DNA of 61,136 bases, the filler included, from Bonamia ostreae (taxonomy: Eukaryota), in NCBI GenBank assembly GCA_040357525.1. It is 13 parts of 13 records of this genome, joined end to end, with 100 filler letters (N's around TTAATTAATTAA, not from the genome) between each part and the next. Parts side by side here need not be neighbours in the genome. Positions count along the whole stretch, not along the records: positions 23,735 to 28,356 come from JBDODL010000287.1; 12 more parts are not named here. One strand, written 5' to 3'. Both the position numbers and the translations under genes were made by a program. The notes beneath the pieces were generated by a model. The model did no database searches. It saw only the letters and a list, made by a program, of their open reading frames with translations, and was not told where the DNA came from. Shown here in pieces: positions 14,260 through 57,438 of this stretch; within the stretch, counting starts at the first letter, position 1, and each line of letters begins with the position of its first letter.

Positions 14260-15628
14260 GAGCACGCCTGGCTGGTTGTCCTGGTACGTGGTGAAGTTCT
14301 CCGTCTTCTAGGTGGGGAGGGTCGTGTTACGGGGGATCAAGGTGGTCATGATTCCGCCCGCGGTCTCGATGCCGAGCGAAAGCGGCGTCACGTCGATGAG
14401 CAGCAAGTCGCTCGTCGCTTTCCCGCCAGTCCCGCTCAGAATCGCGGCCTGCACGGTGGCGCCATAGGCCACGGCTTCGTCGGGGTTGATCGAGTGGCAC
14501 GGCTCCTTCCCGTTGAAGAAGGACTTGATCATCTCCTGGATCTTCGGGATGCGCGTGCTGCCGCCGACTAACACGATCTCGTCCACGCGCGCCTTGTCCA
14601 CCTTCGAGTCGCGCAGCACTTGTTGGACTGGGCCGATGCACTTTGCAAAGTCTTCTTGGCACAGGTGCTCGAACTTGGCCCGAGTAATCGACGAGCTGAA
14701 GTCGATCCCGTCGTGGAGAGAGTCGATGTCGACGTGCGCCTGCTTGTTGGAGGAGAGGGTTTTCTTCATGGCCTCGCTCTGCGTTATCAGCTTCCGCATG
14801 GCTCGCTTGTCCTTCGTGATGTCCTTCTTGTGCTTGCGCTGGAACTCGGACGCGAGGTGGTTCACGATCTTCAGGTCGAAGTCCTGCCCGCCGAGGTGCG
14901 TGTCTCCGGCGGTGGCCTTCACCTCGAAGATCCCGTCGTCGATCGCGAGCAGAGACACGTCGAAAGTGCCTCCTCCCAGGTCGAAGATGAGCACGGTCTT
15001 CTCCTTGTCGCTCTTCTTGTCGAGCCCATAAGCGATCGCCGCCGCGGTCGGCTCGTTAATGATCCGCAGAACGTTGAGTCCTGCTATCTTCCCGGCGTCT
15101 TTTGTAGCCTTGCGCTGTTCGTCGTTGAAGTAGGCGGGCACCGTCACGACGGCGTTCTTCACCTCCTGGCCGATCTTCTTGCTGGCCACATCTTTCAAGT
15201 AGCCGAGCAACATGGCCGAGACCTGCTCCGCGCGGAACTGCTGCGTTTTCTTCTGGTGGTTCACCTCGATGACGGGCACGCCGTTCTTGGCCGCCACTTT
15301 GAAGGGCCATGTCTTCATGTCGTTTTGGACGTTCGGGTCGTTGAACGTCCTTCCGATGAGGCGCTTCGCGTCGTAGACGGTGTTGGACGGGTTGCGGTTC
15401 GCCTGGTTTTTGGCCGCGCGGCCGATGAGGCGCTCCTCCTCCGTGAAGGCGATGTACTGAATTTAAGGAGGAAAACAGAGGGCGTGGTGCGTTCTCCGAC
15501 GTCGTTCGCGATGATCTCGGGTTTGCCGTTGACAAAGTGCCCGACGCAGGAGTAAGTCGTCCCCAAGTCGATCCCGATGCCTTTAAATATTTGGGAAAAC
15601 AAGGTCCTTCTGCTTTTTTGTCAGTCAT
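14260..15628 (-). CDS. HSP70: Cytosolic Hsp70 (3' truncated by the contig end; one in-frame TAG at 14308-14310)
   Basis: Removing 20-nt introns 15581-15600 and 15457-15476 gives [23 protein letters not shown]...[18 protein letters not shown]. Also [34 protein letters not shown] and [11 protein letters not shown]. Confidence 0.97.
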
Positions 15629-18576: not shown

Positions 18577-19000
18577 NNNNNNNNNNGTTAATTAAAAAAA
18601 AAATTGCAAAGGTTTTCAACTGCGATTTTATACTTAAATTTGTAATGTGCGGGTATAAAACTATTCTACTTACTCAATTATTGTACTTAATTTGGATTAA
18701 AATTTGACAAACTCCCTCTTTTAAGCTTCATTTCCACAAAATCTTACCCATTTTAAACACGACGGAAATAATAAAATTTTTAAAAAATCAGTTCATCTTT
18801 ATTTTGTAAATTTTCATTTGTGATCTTGAAATAATCGGAACTTAGTTTCATTGTTTGTAATTTTTACAATTTTTTTATTTTGAAGAAGATCATACAAACG
18901 ANNNNNNNNNNNNNNNNNNNNNNNNNNNNNNNNNNNNNNNNNNNNTTAATTAATTAANNNNNNNNNNNNNNNNNNNNNNNNNNNNNNNNNNNNNNNNNNN

Positions 19001-23734: not shown

Positions 23735-26700
23735 ATGGTGTTGTTTGCGGAGAATGTGGAGGAAATATGCACTATGATCCAATTACTGCTAAATGTTACA
23801 AATGTGGACCTTTTATGGTACCAGATCAGAATTTAATCGATTGCTGTTTTTATTATAGTTGTTTGTTCATGTTTCAAAATTTATTATCTGCAAATTTGAT
23901 TTTTTGTTTCGTAATCCATTTAATCTACGGTTCCTGTTTACATGATCCAACCATGTAATCATTGTTACAAATCCTAAAGGGCTAACCCTTCCATTCCCAA
24001 TGTCTCCCTTTAGTTTCAAAGTTTAAATTGCGTCGACTACACACACGCCTTTGAATATTTACACTACCAGGTGTGAACTGAAGAGGACGATCAAGGCGTT
24101 GGTTAGGATTTGTTTCCTATATGACACCGTCTCTCATCAGAAAGGCAAAAATTAAAAAAAAATAGGAAAAACAATTCTATTATTTAAAAAGTGACATGCA
24201 GTGGAGATCAACATCCGATTGAAGGAGCTGCAAAATGTGGATCGTGTTCGCCAAGTCAATTTTTTAACACTATAAAATTGGATTGCAATGAATGCGATAG
24301 CAAAAGTATAGTTTCCATAGATAAAAGAAGCTGCAGTTTTAAATTTTTACTTTAATTGAAGTTGAATGTGATTTGTTGTCTTACCCGATTAAAAGCGGAT
24401 CAGAATGTGGCTACTGTGACATGAACACATTCTATTCGCAAAAGGAAAAGTCTTGTGTCGAGTGCCCTCAAAACGAGGCTCCTTTTAAGGATAGATCTGG
24501 TTGCCGTTTTTTTAATAAATATTTTTATCCGTTTACTAAATTGCAAAGCGAATATAAAATTTGCCGAAAGAAGACAGTTGAATAAAAATTGAAAATATTT
24601 TTAAAAAATAGAAAATTGTGCAAAAACAAACAAATTTGCTTTAAATGGTGAGACAACATGTTCAAATTGTCCATTGAATAAAATTTACAATTCAAAACGA
24701 AGAGAATGTGTCGATTGTGACGATAATTCAGTTCCCAGTTCAAACCAAACGTCCTGTGGTTTAATTGAACATTATTCAATATGTAAACAATCAAAATAAT
24801 TAATATTTCATGATAAATAATACGTACTCTGGATTTTGTATCTGTTAAAGTCGTGTCGAAAATTTCCTTTCTGGCTCAGATCACTTTAATGAGTTGAAAA
24901 TCTAAAAAATAAAAAGATATTTGTCCTGTTGGTACTTTCCCAATAGCATCCGGAAAAACTTGTGGAATATGCGCAAATGGTTTCTATCCCGATTCAATTA
25001 CTAAAAATTGTCTACTTTGCACTGATACAGCTGACAATGAATTTTGTGGTTTTATTTTTAAGTTATATTTTTGCAGAAAAATGTCCTTCGAAAACTTACA
25101 GAATGAAAAATGGAAAATGCTCTTTGTGTCCAAAACATCAAATTTTGAACATTGTTACGAATTTATGCGAAGAATGTCCTTTGTTTCAAGTTCCCAACGA
25201 AGATCAATCAATTTGCGGTTATTATTTTATTTTTATAATGTAAATGTTTTATATTAACAAAGTAATGTTAATTAATTAATATTTAAAGAGATTTGTGAAG
25301 AAGGAGAATATCCTATCGAAAAAGGTATGAAATGTGGAGTATGTGAAAAACACTATTATTATAAGGAGTCTTCGTTAATTTGCGAAAAATGCAACGATAA
25401 ATCCATTTCTGTTATAGCCAATATTCCCATTTGTCGTTTTAAAAATTTACATTGCAATAATAAAAAGAAAAATGTGAAGATAAAATGTATCCAATCGAAA
25501 AAGGAACAAAATGTGGGCAGTGTTCAATAGGACAAATTTATGATAAATTTACTTTAGAGTGTCTATCTTGTAACAACGACCAAATACCAGACGAAAATAA
25601 TCTTATGTGTGGTTACTATTTTAAAAACTAACAGTAATCCATATGAAAAAATCAATTTTCTTTAACATTGATCGCTAGTAATTTAAACTCAACAAAAAAG
25701 AAAAATGTGCTCAAGGGTTTTTCCCAATAAATTTCGAATGCAAAGAATGCCCATTGCAATTTATTTACAATCCATCATTTCTTCAATGCCAACAATGTCC
25801 AATTAAAACAGTTCCAAATTACGAACAAACCTTATGCGGTTCAAATTTTTTTCTTGTTATCACTCAAGAATATCATTATTTTTTATTTTAACAAAGTCAT
25901 TATTTATAATCTGGAAAAATATTCATGATCACTCAAAAATTTTCCTGATTATTGTTACCATCTTAAAAAAAAGTTGCTTGTGAAAAAAACAAACAAGCAG
26001 TAAAAAACGGAACGGAATGCAAAAAATGCTCAGCCAATCAGTTTTATGATACCCAAAAAAGAGATTGTTTTTTATGTGAAAGCAACAGTGTACCAAATTT
26101 ATCGAAGACGAGCTGCTGTTTCATTTAAATAAATATTTTAGCCGAATGCAACGATAACGAATTTGTTATTAGAAACGGAACCTTTTGCGGTTTGTGCCCA
26201 GATGGTCAATATAGAAACAACGGAATTTGTGAAAAATGTCCATTTCTGTCTATTCCGAAAGAAGATCAAACCGGCTGCATGCTTTGTCCTCCAGGAAATT
26301 ACGCAGACGCAAATCTCTCTGCATGTCTCCCCTGCAAACAGCATTTGTTTCTTAATGTCACGTCAGGAAACTGCGAAGAGTGTTTGGAAAACAAATTTCC
26401 CAATGAAGACAATACTGATTGCAGTTTTTAATTTTTTTTGGATTCAGAGTTTAAACAACATTTATTTTCACTTTCCTCATTTTGAGCATTTTAACAATTC
26501 GTTTGCCATTTAAAGTTATTGTTTGCCCCGATCAATATTGGCCTAATTTGGATGCCTGGCAATGTTTAAAGAAACCGCTTATTCGACTGACATGGTGGCA
26601 ACACATAACGATTGCTTGGCTTGCGTTGGCAACAATCGTTTTGTTGGGTATTTTTATTTTTTGGAATTATCCGTTTTACGAGTCAGTAGATTTGCCATTT

Positions 26701-26799
26701 GCGCCAGATGAAGATTTCTCTGATTATTACACTGACGTTGAAATAAAGAATGTAGAAGTTTTTCTTAACGAACAGGATATTTTAGTTGTAGAAGATTAA
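23735..26799 (+). CDS. Cys-rich repeat (GCC2/GCC3, furin/VSP-like) type-I surface protein, one repeat per exon; 5' truncated
   Basis: At least 12 six-Cys modules (C-x~12-CxxC-x~12-CxxC-x~12-C), TM HITIAWLALATIVLLGIFIFW and an acidic Tyr-containing tail. Confidence 0.88.
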
Positions 26800-27034
26800 A
26801 TGCCCAAATCTTATTATTGTTCGTATTTAAGTCAATCTTAACATGTGGATCTATTTTCTTTTTATATTAGTTACAATTTTAGATTATAATAATTTATATT
26901 TTGTTACAAACTCACAATGAGAATAAAAATTGTTCTAAAAATCAAACTGTTATAAATTTGATAATAGAAATGTTAAAAATTTTATAATAAAATCACGCAA
27001 TTTATTTTCCATGCAAAATTTAAATTATGAAAAA

Positions 27035-28306
27035 ATGGGATATCTTATTTGCTTCCTATTTATTTGTATTCCTCATTGTTATTCTCAAAACACACCAGTT
27101 TATAGTTTTGTTTTAAGATATGTAGTACAAACCAAAAAAATATTAACAAGTAAATTAAACATGTACTTTAAAAATTATCATAAAAAGGCGATAAAGTCTA
27201 TCTAGACACAACAACAATAAGAAATGACTGTTTAGACACAGACGGCAACAGAGTAATCTTTGCAAAGTGCGCTGAAAACAACAAAAATTTATTTTATTTC
27301 ACATCAGCATTCATTGGATCAATTAAACATTCGAAATCTAACAAATGTGTTTCTGTGGATGGTGATGACAATCTAGTGCTTACTATTTTAGAAGAAGATT
27401 GCAAAGATTTTGTTATTTATGATAATAACATCATCTTGCAACAAAAATTGTTTAGTTATTCAATAATGAACAAAAAAATGATTGCCTTTATAACTGGCGA
27501 CACGGAAGAATTTGTAATATTTAAGAACAAAATAGTTGTCCCACCTCCTGAAATTCTAAAGATCAGTTACTTTGGGGTTGAGGAAGAACCAAAAGAAATG
27601 ACTATAAAAATGATGAAACCGCGGTATCTAGAAATTTACAAAAATATTGAATTTCTAATCTATAATTCTGACATCGAGGAAGCATTAATTTTCGACCCAT
27701 TTGAAGAATTAACGTTGACAAAGGGGGATTTCAATTTTTTAAAAGCATTTAAATTGCGTTTTAGAAACAAAATAACGGGTCTGATGTCCGTAGAGCATCA
27801 TCAGAAGCCAACTTGTTACAGAGACTGTGGGGGTACAAATTGTTTTAAGACGGGGAAAACGTGTGAGAAATGCGAAGGAAATTTTTATATGAATTTACTT
27901 TTGGAGACTTGTGATAGATGTCCTGATAATATGGTGCCAGATGACGAAAATTCTGATTGCAGTTTAAATTTTTAATAGACTTTAAAATTTAGTTAAATGT
28001 TTACCGGGAATGAGACCGATAAAAAACGGGACAATATGTGGATATTGTGAAGATAACATGTACTACAATTATATAGAAGAAGAATGTCACTTTTGTGATG
28101 GCTTGACAAGTATTCCGAATTCAACAGTAGACGGATGCAGTTTCGAAACTAACTTTAAAAAGTATTTTGCAACAATGATGAATATGCTATTGAAGGAGGC
28201 ACAAGATGTGGAAAATGCAACGGAGTTAATCTTTATAATCCTGCTAAAAGAGAGTGTAAAACATGTCCAGAAAACAGCGCCTTAAACATGAAATCATTCG
28301 AATGCT
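27035..28306 (+). CDS. Paralogous surface protein: signal peptide, ricin-B-like domain, possible FN3-like region, then Cys-rich repeat exons; 3' truncated
   Basis: MGYLICFLFICIPHCYS; NDCLDTDGNRVIFAKC..IKHSKSNKCVSV. Repeat exons 27993-28139 and 28163-28306. Confidence 0.75.
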
Positions 28307-28770
28307 GTCTCAAAAATTTTAAAATTACAATTTAATTTTTTTGTAATTGTTTAAAANNNNNNNNNNNNNNNNNNNNNNNNNNNNNNNNNNNNNNNNNNNN
28401 TTAATTAATTAANNNNNNNNNNNNNNNNNNNNNNNNNNNNNNNNNNNNNNNNNNNNAATTAACAACTTCTGATAACTCTTATCTAGAAATGTTTAAAACA
28501 CCAATATCTTCGAAAAACGAAGCATTTATTGGGAAATTAAAATTTGATAATGGTTAACGTTTAATGGAAAATAGGATTAAACGGTTAACACTTAATGGAC
28601 AGTAGGATAAAATGGTTCACATTTGATTCTGCCATTATTTGGATAAAGTAGAAAGAGGATTTAAATTTTTATTGGTGTAGAAAAATTCCCAAACCCAAAA
28701 CTAGGAAAGACAACATATATAACTGATATTCAAACCAAATCTAAAAATAAACATAAGACAACAAACTTAA

Positions 28771-44643: not shown

Positions 44644-46224
44644 TTAATTTTCCATTTCAGTTTCTTCGTTCGGGGGAGGTACAAACCAAGACAAGCGACC
44701 TCTCTGCCAATCATGCAATATCATCCTCGCACAGTTATTTACATCCGGCTCTCCGCCTTTTAGCAGTTTCCCCGACTTCTTCGCAAATTCTGCCAGAAAT
44801 TGCTCGGGATCCACCCATTCAAACTCGCCGTAAGCTCTTTCCAGAAATTCTTTTTTGACGCGCTTCAGAATTTCCGGAATGTACTGCTCTGGATTTTCGA
44901 CGTTCTCGACTCTAACAACCCCCTTCAAAACGATTTCAGCGTCTGAATCCGAATTGGGGCAGACTACGCCAGGACAGTCGACGAGATAAATTTGTTTGAA
45001 CAAAGTAACGTATTGCCATACTTTCGTTTCGCCGGCGATCGGCGCCACCTTACAGACTTTCTTCTTTTTGAGCGCGTTGATGATCGAGCTTTTCCCGACA
45101 TTCGGATAACCCACAAGTCCCACAGAAATCTGTTTCCGGTGAGAATTCAATTTTGAGTACTGTCGCAACAGCTTTATTAGCGAGCCCTTTCCTTTAAGAG
45201 AAATTTAATAAATTTATCGATTTTTCGAAAATTTAATGTTGTTACAGGCGACGCTTCGAATAGATAAGATTTATTAAAATTTGCCGTTTTAGCATTTTAA
45301 CCATTTCTAAATAAGAATTAAATTTCGAAAAACGCGTTTTTGCCAATTTTAAATATTTTGAACATCGCCAATATATTAAAAACCAAAAGGCCGTTTGATG
45401 GAAGCGTGGAAAGCAATTGCTGGGAAATCTTTGGACAGAATCCTCAGCCATTGGCGAACGGCCCAATTTGGGATGAGGTCGCACTTGTTCAAAACGAAGA
45501 CCATGTTTTTGTGGCAGTCCTTTTTGCGGAAAATCTTTTCGATGTGTTCGGATCTGGTGCCGACGGGGTTTCGCGCATCCAAAACCTGCAGCACAACATC
45601 GGAACTGTCTATCACTTTATACAGCTCGCTCCAAATCCGCTTCGACTGGCCCTTGGAGAAAATGCTTTCCCGCGCTGATTCTGAAATTTGGGCAAAGTCG
45701 TCGTCGTTGTCACTTCTCGTGCTTTTTTGGGTCTTTTGATCAAACTCGGAATGACTTTTGCGAACAGCTTTCGCGAGATCTGTCATGTTTTCGAAACTTA
45801 ATTTCGGGCGTTTTCTGGTCGATTTTGAGCCAAACGTCTGTTCGAAAGTTTCCGTCTCCAAAATTTTGCTGTTTTTCTGCTTTTTGGGCTCCTGTAACAA
45901 AGAAAGGGGCAGTTTCCGCTTTTTCAGGACGATTTTGAAGGGATCGTGCGCTTGGAGGTCCATCGCTTCTTTGAACTCGTCGAGGCTGTTCTGGGAGATG
46001 ACTCTCGTGTTACCGAACCATCTGCGGTCCGGTTGTATTTTCGCTGATGAACCCGTGTCTTTTCCGACGAGGAGAGATTTTGGCTGGTTTTTGAGGAGCG
46101 CTCCTTTTTTGTTTCGAATTGTCTTTTGTTTGTGCAGTCGAAGCCGTTTGGCGGTCGCTGTGTCTCGCTGCGCATTCAACTTGTTTAGTTTTTTGTTTCG
46201 GGGAGCCAAAAGAGTTTTAGACAT
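44644..46224 (-). CDS. NOG2: Nucleolar GTP-binding protein 2 (Nog2/GNL2)
   Basis: PDRRWFGNTR, KGQSKRIWSELYKVIDSSDVV, NKCDL, GYPNVGKSS and DCPG. One intron at ~45193-45383. Confidence 0.96.
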
Positions 46225-54041: not shown

Positions 54042-54934
54042 ATGGCTAGCTCAAATTCTCCCAAAGTTCCCCTAAACAAAATCGACACAAGGCTCAAAAC
54101 GGCTAAAATTCCCGTTATTCTTATCGCAGGCGGGACGTTTTCGCCGATTACGAATTTGCATCTGCGGATGTTCGGTTTTATCTCCGCTATTTAAAGAGGA
54201 CGCGAAGAATTTTATGGGCTCCAAAAACGGCGAATATCAAATAATCGGCGGTTTCATTTCCCCTGTCCACGACGAATATCCAAAAGTTTTTAAATGGTTT
54301 CGCTTAAACGGGTCGTCTTGGCCAAAAAATTTCGTTTCGGTTAATTGGCGTTTGCAACAAAAAGAAAAAATTGCACTCGAAACATCGCGTGAAAATGGCG
54401 CAATTGGCCGTAAGCGATTCAAATTGGATCGAAGTTTCGACGCTGGAAGTAAAAAATTCCAAATGGATGAGCACTCGGGAAGTGATTTCCGCCCACATAA
54501 AAATATTCAGACAACACTTGCCGCTCGCGCTGAAAGGTTTTCAAAGCAAAACNNNNNNNNNNNNNNNNNNNNNNNNNNNNNNNNNNNNNNNNNNNNNNNN
54601 NNNNNNNNNNNNNNNNNNNNNNNNNNNNNNNNNNNNNNNNNNNNNNNNNNNNACCTTGAGCTGCTCATCGATTCCATTCCGATTTTGCGAAAGAATAAAG
54701 TTTTTAATAATCGATTTTCGCCGTTCAATTTGGCAAAATCTATCTTAACGCAAAATAGAAAGATATTGTAACGGTCCCGAGCCTTATAGAAAACAATATG
54801 AGCTCTACAAAAATCAGGTTTGAAGTTAAAATCTGAATGTTTATAGAAAGATTATTCGAATGGGGATGTCGGTAAAGTACTTGATTCCGGATTCTGTAAT
54901 TGATTATATCAAACGAAACGAAATTTTAAAATAA
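54042..54934 (+). CDS. NMNAT: Nicotinamide mononucleotide adenylyltransferase (spans an internal N gap)
   Basis: GTFSPITNLHLRMF, ISPVHDEY, HRVKMAQLA...WIEV, SVKYLIPDSVIDYI. Confidence 0.93.
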
Positions 54935-55233: not shown

Positions 55234-56479
55234 CTACAAATCATTTAATAACTTCGAATTCTGCTCAAAAAGCGACTTCAAAACAGTTTTAATCTGCGGA
55301 AGAGAAAGCGTTGTGTATCTTAGATTAGTCAAATGTTCAACAAGACTAAAGGCTTTTCTCTTTTTTTTGCAATTTGCAATTTTGTCGTTACGTTTTATCA
55401 CTACCCGCAAACAAAAGATTAAAAACTGCGTTCTTCGAATCTGTTTTAGACCTTCCTTCTGTTTTTCTGTGCAATTCTTCCATATAAGCTCTAGCTTCAC
55501 ACACTACTTCGCTCGGAAAACCAGTGATTTCTGTGAAAAGTAAATTTGAGCGAATTTGTAATATTCGTTCAAAAGTAAAGGATATGTAACAAACCAGCGA
55601 TGTGGATGCCGTACCCGATCTTTTTCTTCGACTCTTCTGGCGAATCTTCGTTTTCCACAACTTTGAACGAATATTTGAATCCGTTTTCATCGATTTGGAC
55701 GTTGAGCACTTTATTTCTGACGTTCGGATAAAAGGAAGCCAACTCGCACAACTCGAAAAAATGGGTCGAAAACAAGACGTTGCAACGTTTTTCGGCCAAC
55801 TTTTGTTCGCTATTGAAACTTTTTCGGCGGAGGCCCAAGCAACAGAAGTCCCGTCAGTCGAAGATGTGGCTCTCCCGAGTTCGTCGATGACGATAAGACT
55901 GTTGTCGTTGGCGTTGTTGAGGATATTGGCGGCTTCAGACATTTCTTTGAAAAATGTCGACTTGTTTTCAGACAGGCTTTCAACGTTCGGGAACCCTATT
56001 TGATTTGAGCTCGAAACTTGTCAGAATGCTATCGATGATGCGGAACGAAGCGTTTTCTGCTGGCACAAAACTCTTATTTTTAAATCTGCAAAGAAACTCC
56101 AATGTGCGCCATTATCGCCAAAACACAAATTTGCTTCAAATAAGTCGATTTTCCGCTCTGCAATTAGACGAAAAAACTGCGTTTGGGCCAGTTATCAGGT
56201 GAAAATTAAAATTGTCGCTCTGAAAAAAATCGTTCGGCACAAACTGTTCAATGCTCAGAACCTCTATCACCGGGTGCCGTCCCTGGCGTATCGAGACCAC
56301 TCCGTCTTCTGAGAATTTTGGTCGTTTATAGTTTGGGCGATGTAGAGCTAGCAACGCGAAGGACGTCTTTTCGATTATGTTTGAAACCAGCATGTCCAAT
56401 AAGGCGACTGCTTCTGATGCCAATTGAAGCCCTTTGTTAATTTTATAACTTTGTGCGACGGTTGCACTAATGTTTGAAG
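55234..56479 (-). CDS. MSH4: MutS homolog 4 (meiotic), ATPase domain, 5' truncated
   Basis: ASEAVALLDML-TSF, GRHPV, ITGPNA-SGKSTYLKQ, STFFKEM, NANDNSLIVIDELGRATSSTDG and STHF. At least five 20-25-nt introns. Confidence 0.8.
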
Positions 56480-56856
56480 NNNNNNNNNNNNNNNNNNNNN
56501 NNNNNNNNNNNNNNNNNNNNNNNTTAATTAATTAANNNNNNNNNNNNNNNNNNNNNNNNNNNNNNNNNNNNNNNNNNNNTTGTAATAAATGGCAGCGATT
56601 TTTGGAAAAATTTTTTAATATTGTAATATTTATTTCTTTGTAATAATTTTCTTATTGATATTAAATTTATCCACCACACCCAACAAATACTTTGAAAAAT
56701 AAATATTCTTAAAAGTTTTAAGTATTCCTTCAATGTTTTTACAATTTTAAATAAGTGTCACAAAAATAAAACAACATCACATGACCCGACGAACAAAGAT
56801 AACTTCGTTTCAAAGTTCATTATCAAAGATTCGCTAATCCAACCGCCACAACGGCG

Positions 56857-57438
56857 ATGAAAACAATGACGGACAACAAACTCGAAAAAAACGTCTTCCA
56901 ATCCTTCCGCCGCCTCTCAGTGCTGGCGCACGTCACGAAGCGCTTCGGATCTAACGTCGTTATGGAACGATCAAAGCACGACATAACCGTCTTAAAAAAC
57001 ATCAAAAACTGCTGTTTTTGCAAGTTCTGTTGCAAAGTCTTCGCCAAGCTCCCAGATTTAAACCGACATTTGCGCACTCACACGGGAGAGCGTCCTTACG
57101 AATGCGACGTGTGTTCAAAGGCGTTCAGTGACAAGAGAAATTTAATGCATCACAATCAAGTGCACACGAAGAGCCGCCCCTTTGTTTGTGACGCATGCGA
57201 CAAGGCTTTTGCGCGAATGTCACACTTGAAACTGCATTTCAAGACGCACGAGAGCGAAGGTTTATACCGCTGCGAGATGTGTCTGAAAAGACTGGATACA
57301 AAGGAAGAACTGCGATTGCACCGGGAAAGACATGAAGCAGGGAATGGTGCATATAGATGTAGACACTGCAAGGTGTATTACAGGTTGTACCACAGTTTCC
57401 AGCAGCATTTGAAAACTGCGCATGGGACGGAAGACTGA
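56857..57438 (+). CDS. C2H2 zinc-finger protein (5 fingers)
   Basis: CxxC..HxxxH repeats with an HTGERPY linker. Confidence 0.93.
   Translation: MKTMTDNKLEKNVFQSFRRLSVLAHVTKRFGSNVVMERSKHDITVLKNIKNCCFCKFCCKVFAKLPDLNRHLRTHTGERPYECDVCSKAFSDKRNLMHHNQVHTKSRPFVCDACDKAFARMSHLKLHFKTHESEGLYRCEMCLKRLDTKEELRLHRERHEAGNGAYRCRHCKVYYRLYHSFQQHLKTAHGTED

Follow-up and report, generated by a model that had tools for sequence, protein, structure and literature searches.

The stretch analysed here, window positions 1–61136 (61,136 nucleotides [nt]) of the Bonamia ostreae assembly GCA_040357525.1, carries on one of its contigs (23735–28356, 4.6 kb) two tandem plus-strand genes, A and B, which encode cysteine-rich repeat proteins. 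The window is not a single locus: 13 contigs of ~4.6 kb each, sorted from the longest (4655 bases) to the shortest (4557 bases), are joined by N44-TTAATTAATTAA-N44 spacers. Features on either side of a spacer are not linked. A first-pass annotation had described genes A and B as arrays of six-cysteine modules encoded by interchangeable one-repeat exons and had proposed that these exons form a system for diversifying the surface antigens of a parasite. The structural half of that description is borne out, in that the genes contain symmetric phase 1-1 exons, one repeat to an exon, for cysteine-rich repeats that are probably surface-exposed. The functional half gains no backing from the lines of evidence open to analysis, namely the divergence of the cassettes, the star-like tree of the modules, and the generality of the 1-1 rule.

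Gene A consists of 12 exons separated by 11 introns of 24–346 nt. The spliced exons form a single open frame of 651 codons, 73 of them for cysteine (Cys), that ends in a TAA stop at 26799; the other two frames of the same spliced sequence contain 26 and 51 stops. None of the introns can be read through: nine of the 11 are not multiples of three, and the remaining two carry in-frame stops. The ten internal exons put forward in the first pass are all preceded by AG and followed by GT, all have lengths divisible by three, and each encodes six Cys, or 12 in the longest. The predicted terminal exon, with its transmembrane (TM) helix and tail, is likewise found behind the modules.

The placement of the splice sites relative to the Cys codons is strikingly regular. 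Donors that end a module lie exactly one base past the last Cys codon in all 14 cases, as had been claimed, and the module acceptors sit 5 nt ahead of the first Cys codon in 12 of 12. Because both positions are fixed relative to the Cys codons, the linker between modules always has two residues. The same two-residue linker is kept at the inner boundary of the double-module exon, and the intron is therefore precisely absent there. Every splice junction read in the two genes is phase 1 (15 of 15, comprising 14 introns and the final gene-B donor), but these agreements did not all arise independently, since an exon duplicated in tandem along with its intron passes its phase on to the copy. All introns of both genes are GT–AG. 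The exons thus have the form of class 1-1 modules, in which an exon corresponds to a domain and is bounded on both sides by phase-1 introns.

Gene B begins with an ATG 235 nt downstream of the gene-A stop, and its exons, once spliced, run for 378 codons without a stop up to the end of the contig. The junction behind its signal-peptide-like segment is also phase 1. A fourth donor, at 28307, follows the last visible module, and the gene is truncated at its 3′ end by the contig end at 28356. The idea that this paralog follows the rule of gene A is correct for its two single-module exons but has to be amended for its first module, which lies within the long second exon together with the N-terminal domain. 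The module is seen in two contexts: a TM-tailed array in gene A, and an array behind a possibly lectin-like head in gene B.

Table 1. Positions of the features discussed in the text. The introns between the nine single-module exons of gene A are all phase 1.
Feature	Position	Strand	Length (nt)	Following intron (nt)	Remarks
Gene A, first visible exon	23735–23845	+		346	Only the C-terminal two thirds of its module lie on the contig; profile match E 8.6e-14
Gene A, first intron	23846–24191	+	346
Gene A, single-module exon	24192–24335	+	144	26
Gene A, single-module exon	24362–24505	+	144	106
Gene A, single-module exon	24612–24758	+	147	158
Gene A, single-module exon	24917–25048	+	132	28
Gene A, single-module exon	25077–25217	+	141	71
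Gene A, single-module exon	25289–25435	+	147	32
Gene A, single-module exon	25468–25611	+	144	89
Gene A, single-module exon	25701–25838	+	138	135
Gene A, single-module exon	25974–26117	+	144
Gene A, double-module exon	26142–26423	+	282		12 Cys
Gene A, last exon	26516–26799	+			2-Cys juxtamembrane piece, one TM helix, 43-residue acidic tail (26669–26799), TAA
Gene B, exon 1	27035–27104	+		83 (phase 1)	Start codon, hydrophobic signal-peptide-like segment
Gene B, exon 2	27188–27961	+		31	~210-residue N-terminal domain running straight into the first module, no intron between (E 4.9e-14)
Gene B, single-module exon	27993–28139	+		23
Gene B, single-module exon	28163–28306	+			Donor at 28307
Module-ending donors, gene A		+			11, including that of the 5′-cut first exon (exon end 23845)
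Module-ending donors, gene B		+			3 (exon ends 27961, 28139, 28306)
Nucleolar-GTPase-like gene, intron	45192–45383	−	192		Phase 1
MutS-like gene, intron	56158–56177	−	20		Phase 0
MutS-like gene, intron	56073–56097	−	25		Phase 0
HSP70 open reading frame	14308–15462	−			384 residues, intron-free
C2H2 zinc-finger open reading frame	56803–57438				At least three fingers

The first intron of gene A is by far the longest, and its guanine-plus-cytosine (GC) content of 0.33 is near that of the exons (0.36), the other introns ranging from 0.10 to 0.25. A search of the long introns with the protein profile, the DNA profile, and a CxxC count revealed no decayed module.

The modules belong to the TNFR-like/Ephrin_rec_like (formerly GCC2_GCC3) repeat superfamily. 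Fifteen six-Cys modules were found in the whole window, by a protein profile and by a DNA profile alike, and all of them lie on the one contig of 13 that carries the two visible genes. The nine single-module exons of gene A each match the module profile with E values of 1e-13 to 1e-19. Pfam models, run on eight single-exon pieces, gave matches that are weak and below cut-off but consistent, TNFR_c6 among them. For the double exon these were TNFR_ELAPOR1_6th (E 2.5e-06, 27.7 bits against a cut-off of 33.2), NCD3G (E 3.3e-05, 24.1 bits against 38.9), and Ephrin_rec_like (E 1.5e-04, 21.9 bits against 23.1); the last model scored 17.7 bits on another single exon.

Profile comparisons also indicate family membership. 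Of 1.84 billion representative proteins, 1423 matched a profile built from 14 modules at E ≤ 1e-3, with 11 of them reaching E ≤ 1e-30. When 20 of the 150 listed matches were scanned with Pfam, 17 contained Ephrin_rec_like, NCD3G, or TNFR_ELAPOR1, and 15 contained Ephrin_rec_like itself; the other three were a protein with only a spurious-looking Fin match, a chitin-binding protein, and one without a family. The 14-module alignment was also compared by hhalign with 61 bona fide Ephrin_rec_like repeats, collected independently from two proteins that match this family strongly. The two align over 33 columns (probability 85.5%, E 5.8e-06) with their CxxC pairs in register, and the final Cys of the Pfam unit falls at the exon end.

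The predicted structure agrees with this assignment. An AlphaFold2 model of the double exon, computed from an alignment of 19 short relatives, has a mean predicted local distance difference test score (pLDDT) of 90.6 and contains short strands only. As modelled, the module would adopt the small β-hairpin, disulfide-rich fold of TNFR-like repeats. The Foldseek list is uniform, comprising TNFR family members, Cys-rich domains of class C G-protein-coupled receptors, ELAPOR1, EphA4, meckelin, and a Chlamydomonas mastigoneme. A second structural aligner placed the TNFR-like repeat of ELAPOR1 first (Z 6.1, root-mean-square deviation 1.2 Å over 49 residues, the length of one whole module), followed by class C receptor Cys-rich domains and 4-1BB.

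Among the listed matches, the closest relatives outside the window are two open reading frames (ORFs), P0021 and P0112, which are ~33–35% identical to the modules and reach best single-module scores of 48 and 40 bits. P0021 has three modules and P0112 two, each set in one open frame; because several modules share a frame in these ORFs, the presence of an intron between modules varies in the wider family. In both, the module-final Cys and a Gly are followed directly by an AT-rich segment, apparently an intron that has been read through, which is consistent with another organism having a phase-1 donor at the equivalent position, there behind multi-module exons. In further searches, the double exon retrieved no homologous protein of greater length, P0021 retrieved only itself, on one contig from one source, and a search of metagenome contigs for loci related to the gene-B exon or to P0021 found none.

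Gene A probably encodes a type I membrane glycoprotein with at least 12 repeats and an acidic cytoplasmic tail. The orientation is suggested by a single, strongly hydrophobic membrane helix (Kyte–Doolittle maximum 2.64 over 19 residues) together with a tail in which 13 of 43 residues are acidic and one is basic; there are six N-glycosylation sequons. Its N-terminal head lies beyond the cut end of the contig and so is missing. The tail also contains tyrosine-based Y-x-x-hydrophobic patterns, which we take to resemble endocytic or sorting signals. In gene B the head is possibly lectin-like, judging from a match of residues 12–62 only to Pfam Ricin_B_lectin that, at 24.7 bits (E 2.9e-05), stays under the cut-off of 29. 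A homologue search with the long gene-B exon found no relatives beyond the window's own 169-residue ORF. Both products are probably secretory-pathway glycoproteins that expose Cys-rich repeats at the cell surface, and an adhesion or receptor function seems plausible. A disulfide-bonded, rigid rod of six-Cys repeats would then act as a stalk that keeps a binding head off the membrane.

The copies of the module are old. Only the six Cys are invariant in the alignment, and the modules are 21–43% identical to the first one, which agrees with the earlier remark that Cys spacing is kept while the intervening residues diverge; the six Cys are complete in all 14 full modules. Pairwise DNA identity among the 14 module exons is 43–60% (mean 51%), against 47 ± 3% (maximum 55%) for shuffled exons. 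No pair of introns exceeds its control in local similarity (best score 18, shuffled maximum 20). A maximum-likelihood tree of the 14 modules supports none of its 11 inner branches, a star that can neither show nor exclude mosaicism between the two paralogs; the three gene-B modules neither cluster nor pair with particular gene-A modules. Since exon identity is near the shuffled level, the introns are unrelated, and the tree is star-like, the copies are ancient and saturated. Neither within gene A nor between genes A and B do the cassettes show signs of having recently been duplicated, exchanged, or converted.

These results bear directly on the proposal that symmetric cassettes are now being skipped, duplicated, or swapped to produce many surface variants for immune evasion, which we consider improbable. 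In its favour are the phase-1 junctions throughout, the strong divergence of the residues between the Cys, and the presence of two tandem paralogs. It had been stated that any subset of cassettes could be skipped. This is true of the reading frame, but five of the 55 non-adjacent forward exon joins would create a TAA or TAG at the junction, and the other 50 stay open. Two parasite systems can be cited as the nearest published analogues. Schistosoma micro-exon genes (MEGs) use symmetric exons together with exon skipping (PMC4015677), and the SICAvar genes of Plasmodium knowlesi are multi-exon genes for Cys-rich modules (PMC3152765). Against the proposal stand the lack of near-identical cassettes, the dissimilar introns, a tree without structure, and the confinement of modules to one of the window's 13 contigs. 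Moreover, in Apicomplexa the GCC2_GCC3 proteins form a small family of only four members, which are conserved, stage-specific proteins of the surface and not variant antigens (PMC9843837).

The introns of this genome bear on the proposal as well. Of 17 introns inferred in the window, eight are only 20–32 nt long. The donor is GTT in all 17, with T at +4 in 14, and an A-rich stretch precedes the AG. In a survey of 51 animal genomes, introns shorter than 30 nt are reported only from parasitic myxobolid myxozoans and from Dicyema japonicum (PMC13644364), a parallel that makes a parasitic source plausible and counts in favour of the proposal. The same source gives a GC content of 29% for Henneguya salminicola and a ‘GTa’ donor for myxozoans and Dicyema, which does not match the GTT found here. 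With GTT in 17 of 17 donors, we have not assigned the window to either group, and a literature search on GTT-type donors found no parallel.

That tiny introns and a low intron-to-exon length ratio tell against skipping is an argument from general knowledge and not a test. The exons here measure 132–282 nt, and their flanking introns are mostly shorter than the exons, several being 23–32 nt. Very short introns and low ratios of intron to exon length (below 1) do not favour exon skipping (PMC6335736), which weighs against wholesale cassette diversification. It also weighs against a more modest alternative, in which regulated splicing skips a few cassettes in a stage- or tissue-specific manner and so tunes stalk length, with no antigenic variation. 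This alternative is unlikely, though less so than wholesale diversification. Tuning of stalk length by cassette skipping occurs in many repeat proteins, and the exon structure preserves the frame. Symmetric exons that arose by exon duplication are described as readily skipped (PMC6335736), but a reviewer's comment in the same source holds that skipped exons mostly lie outside protein domains.

The layout of genes A and B is not peculiar to them. Another contig (33173–37779) carries, on the minus strand, one or more Sushi/CCP-like multi-domain genes (Pfam Sushi E 7e-07) with one Cys-rich domain per exon and a TM helix at the end. All five donors read there are phase 1 and lie two codons plus one base past the last Cys of the domain; five of the six acceptors read are phase 1, 5 nt ahead of the first Cys. 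Not all introns of this genome are phase 1, however: of three introns placed in housekeeping genes, two are phase 0 and one is phase 1. These three, in MutS-like and nucleolar-GTPase-like genes, were positioned by conserved protein motifs. According to the review by Patthy, the extracellular and transmembrane proteins that exon shuffling has assembled in animals consist without exception of class 1-1 modules, and introns behind signal peptides are preferentially phase 1 (PMC8001218). Indeed, phase 1-1 domain exons are a general rule for extracellular modular proteins (PMC8001218, PMC7259759, PMC6335736). Because the unrelated Sushi gene and this published rule share one pattern, the layout is normal for extracellular domain genes, which counts against a special diversification function.

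We therefore believe that genes A and B probably represent an ordinary class 1-1 extracellular mosaic-protein architecture that was duplicated in tandem long ago, with no dedicated device for diversification. On this account, an exon and its phase-1 intron would have been duplicated repeatedly, and the array would have grown; later, one intron would have been lost precisely, yielding the double exon; splicing would be constitutive. Several points weigh against this account and the assignments on which it builds. Constitutive splicing of the two genes is an assumption, and the gene structure, with most skipping joins open, permits isoforms. In the myxozoan Sphaerospora molnari, Cys-rich proteins annotated as VSPs have been proposed as immune-evasion factors (PMC11792419), which would be a published parallel to the diversification idea if the window came from that candidate group. 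No single exon attains a Pfam gathering score, Foldseek returned no match to the double-exon model at E ≤ 0.001, and a Z score of 6.1 is only middling for a small domain. The lectin-like head of gene B falls below the Pfam cut-off, and its single-sequence structural model is unusable (pLDDT 34.5).

It might also be supposed that the locus is non-functional, being either a set of decaying pseudogenes or an artefact of assembling a repeat array. Both genes are cut by contig ends, and the assembly is both fragmentary and heterogeneous, with 49–50% GC in one contig against 26–39% in the others. We regard this as the least probable of the explanations. The spliced ORFs are long and free of stops, complete modules retain six Cys without exception, and all splice sites are intact. 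In addition, two DNA sequencing runs from different studies contain 0.95 and 0.91 of the words sampled from the window, and one of the two may be the source sample; a further DNA run contains 0.30.

Other features of the window concern its origin. Twelve contigs are AT-rich, with a GC content of 0.26–0.39 in 2-kb windows. The contig at 14260–18901 is unlike them (0.49–0.50) and encodes a eukaryote-type HSP70 (Table 1); these hints suggest that it may derive from a second organism in the assembly, host or contaminant. A further ORF encodes classical C2H2 zinc fingers with TGERPY-type linkers (Pfam zf-C2H2 E 9.9e-15), and Sushi domains together with C2H2 fingers fit an animal-type gene set. A more ambitious version of the diversification idea would have the contig come from an animal-type parasite with ultra-short introns, in which genes for TNFR-like repeats form a large family and their phase 1-1 cassettes are skipped, or exchanged between paralogs, to give combinatorial surface stalks. 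If true, this would be antigen diversification, by splicing or recombination, built from whole folded domains; we consider it very improbable. An Rfam scan of the whole window gave no matches. Two additional runs of N are present, at 18577–18586 and 54553–54652.

The two genes provide a well-resolved case of an established design, in which an extracellular repeat protein is enlarged by tandem duplication of phase 1-1 domain exons. The introns of this genome are among the shortest known, and the exon-per-domain architecture has survived their extreme shrinkage. The locus should also be useful for training gene models, because ORF callers break it into ~14 pieces. We know of no defined mechanism of surface variation in poorly studied parasites with such genomes. 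Complementary DNA or population data showing that cassettes are skipped or exchanged would lend the locus far greater importance; the data at hand do not point in that direction.

Comparison with antigenic variation systems reveals resemblances of outline. Like the VSPs of Giardia, gene A encodes a CxxC-rich ectodomain followed by one TM helix. Genes A and B, unlike those for VSPs, are rich in introns, and the gene-A tail, 43 residues long and acidic overall, is at odds with the short, conserved tail described for VSPs (PMC11792419). The Giardia VSP model of Pfam had no match at E ≤ 1 in the eight exon pieces scanned. SICAvar genes are likewise multi-exon and encode a variable series of Cys-rich modules before a TM helix and cytoplasmic tail; they have up to 108 members, undergo switching, and place TM and tail on separate exons (PMC3152765). 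Here two genes are seen, TM and tail share one exon, and the modules are TNFR-like, in a comparison made by description only. Schistosoma MEGs resemble genes A and B in having symmetric exons that permit in-frame removal and in encoding secreted or membrane proteins of a parasite (PMC4015677, 10.1101/2023.06.21.545858). Exon skipping in MEGs, shown by cDNA, yields as many as seven splice variants (PMC4015677), but MEG exons encode no folded domains, measure 3–81 bp, and lie between long introns (10.1101/2023.06.21.545858). The exons described here, of 132–282 bp, encode a whole domain each and are separated by introns of 23–346 nt, so that they are not micro-exons.

Closer parallels are found among proteins with the same repeat. 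Proteins with Ephrin_rec_like/GCC2_GCC3 (PF07699), ELAPOR1, and NCD3G units share the six-Cys unit of ~47 residues with two CxxC pairs, and these relatives are likewise surface or membrane proteins. The exons here fall just under the Pfam cut-offs for that family, and their closest listed relatives are only about one-third identical (see above). The architecture also differs, being that of a single-pass protein whose stalk consists of repeats alone and, in gene B, may bear a lectin head. By contrast, the apicomplexan CRMP and BboGDP proteins with GCC2_GCC3 repeats have 8–10 membrane helices (PMC9843837).

The exon design itself is like that of metazoan class 1-1 modules, as set out in Patthy's exon-shuffling rule. 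In both cases an autonomously folding, disulfide-rich domain occupies an exon with phase 1 on either side, and a phase-1 intron lies right behind the signal peptide (PMC8001218). Genes A and B differ from the metazoan modules in their introns, which shrink to 23–32 nt and have GTT donors, and in their array, which looks internally tandem-duplicated rather than assembled from different module types.

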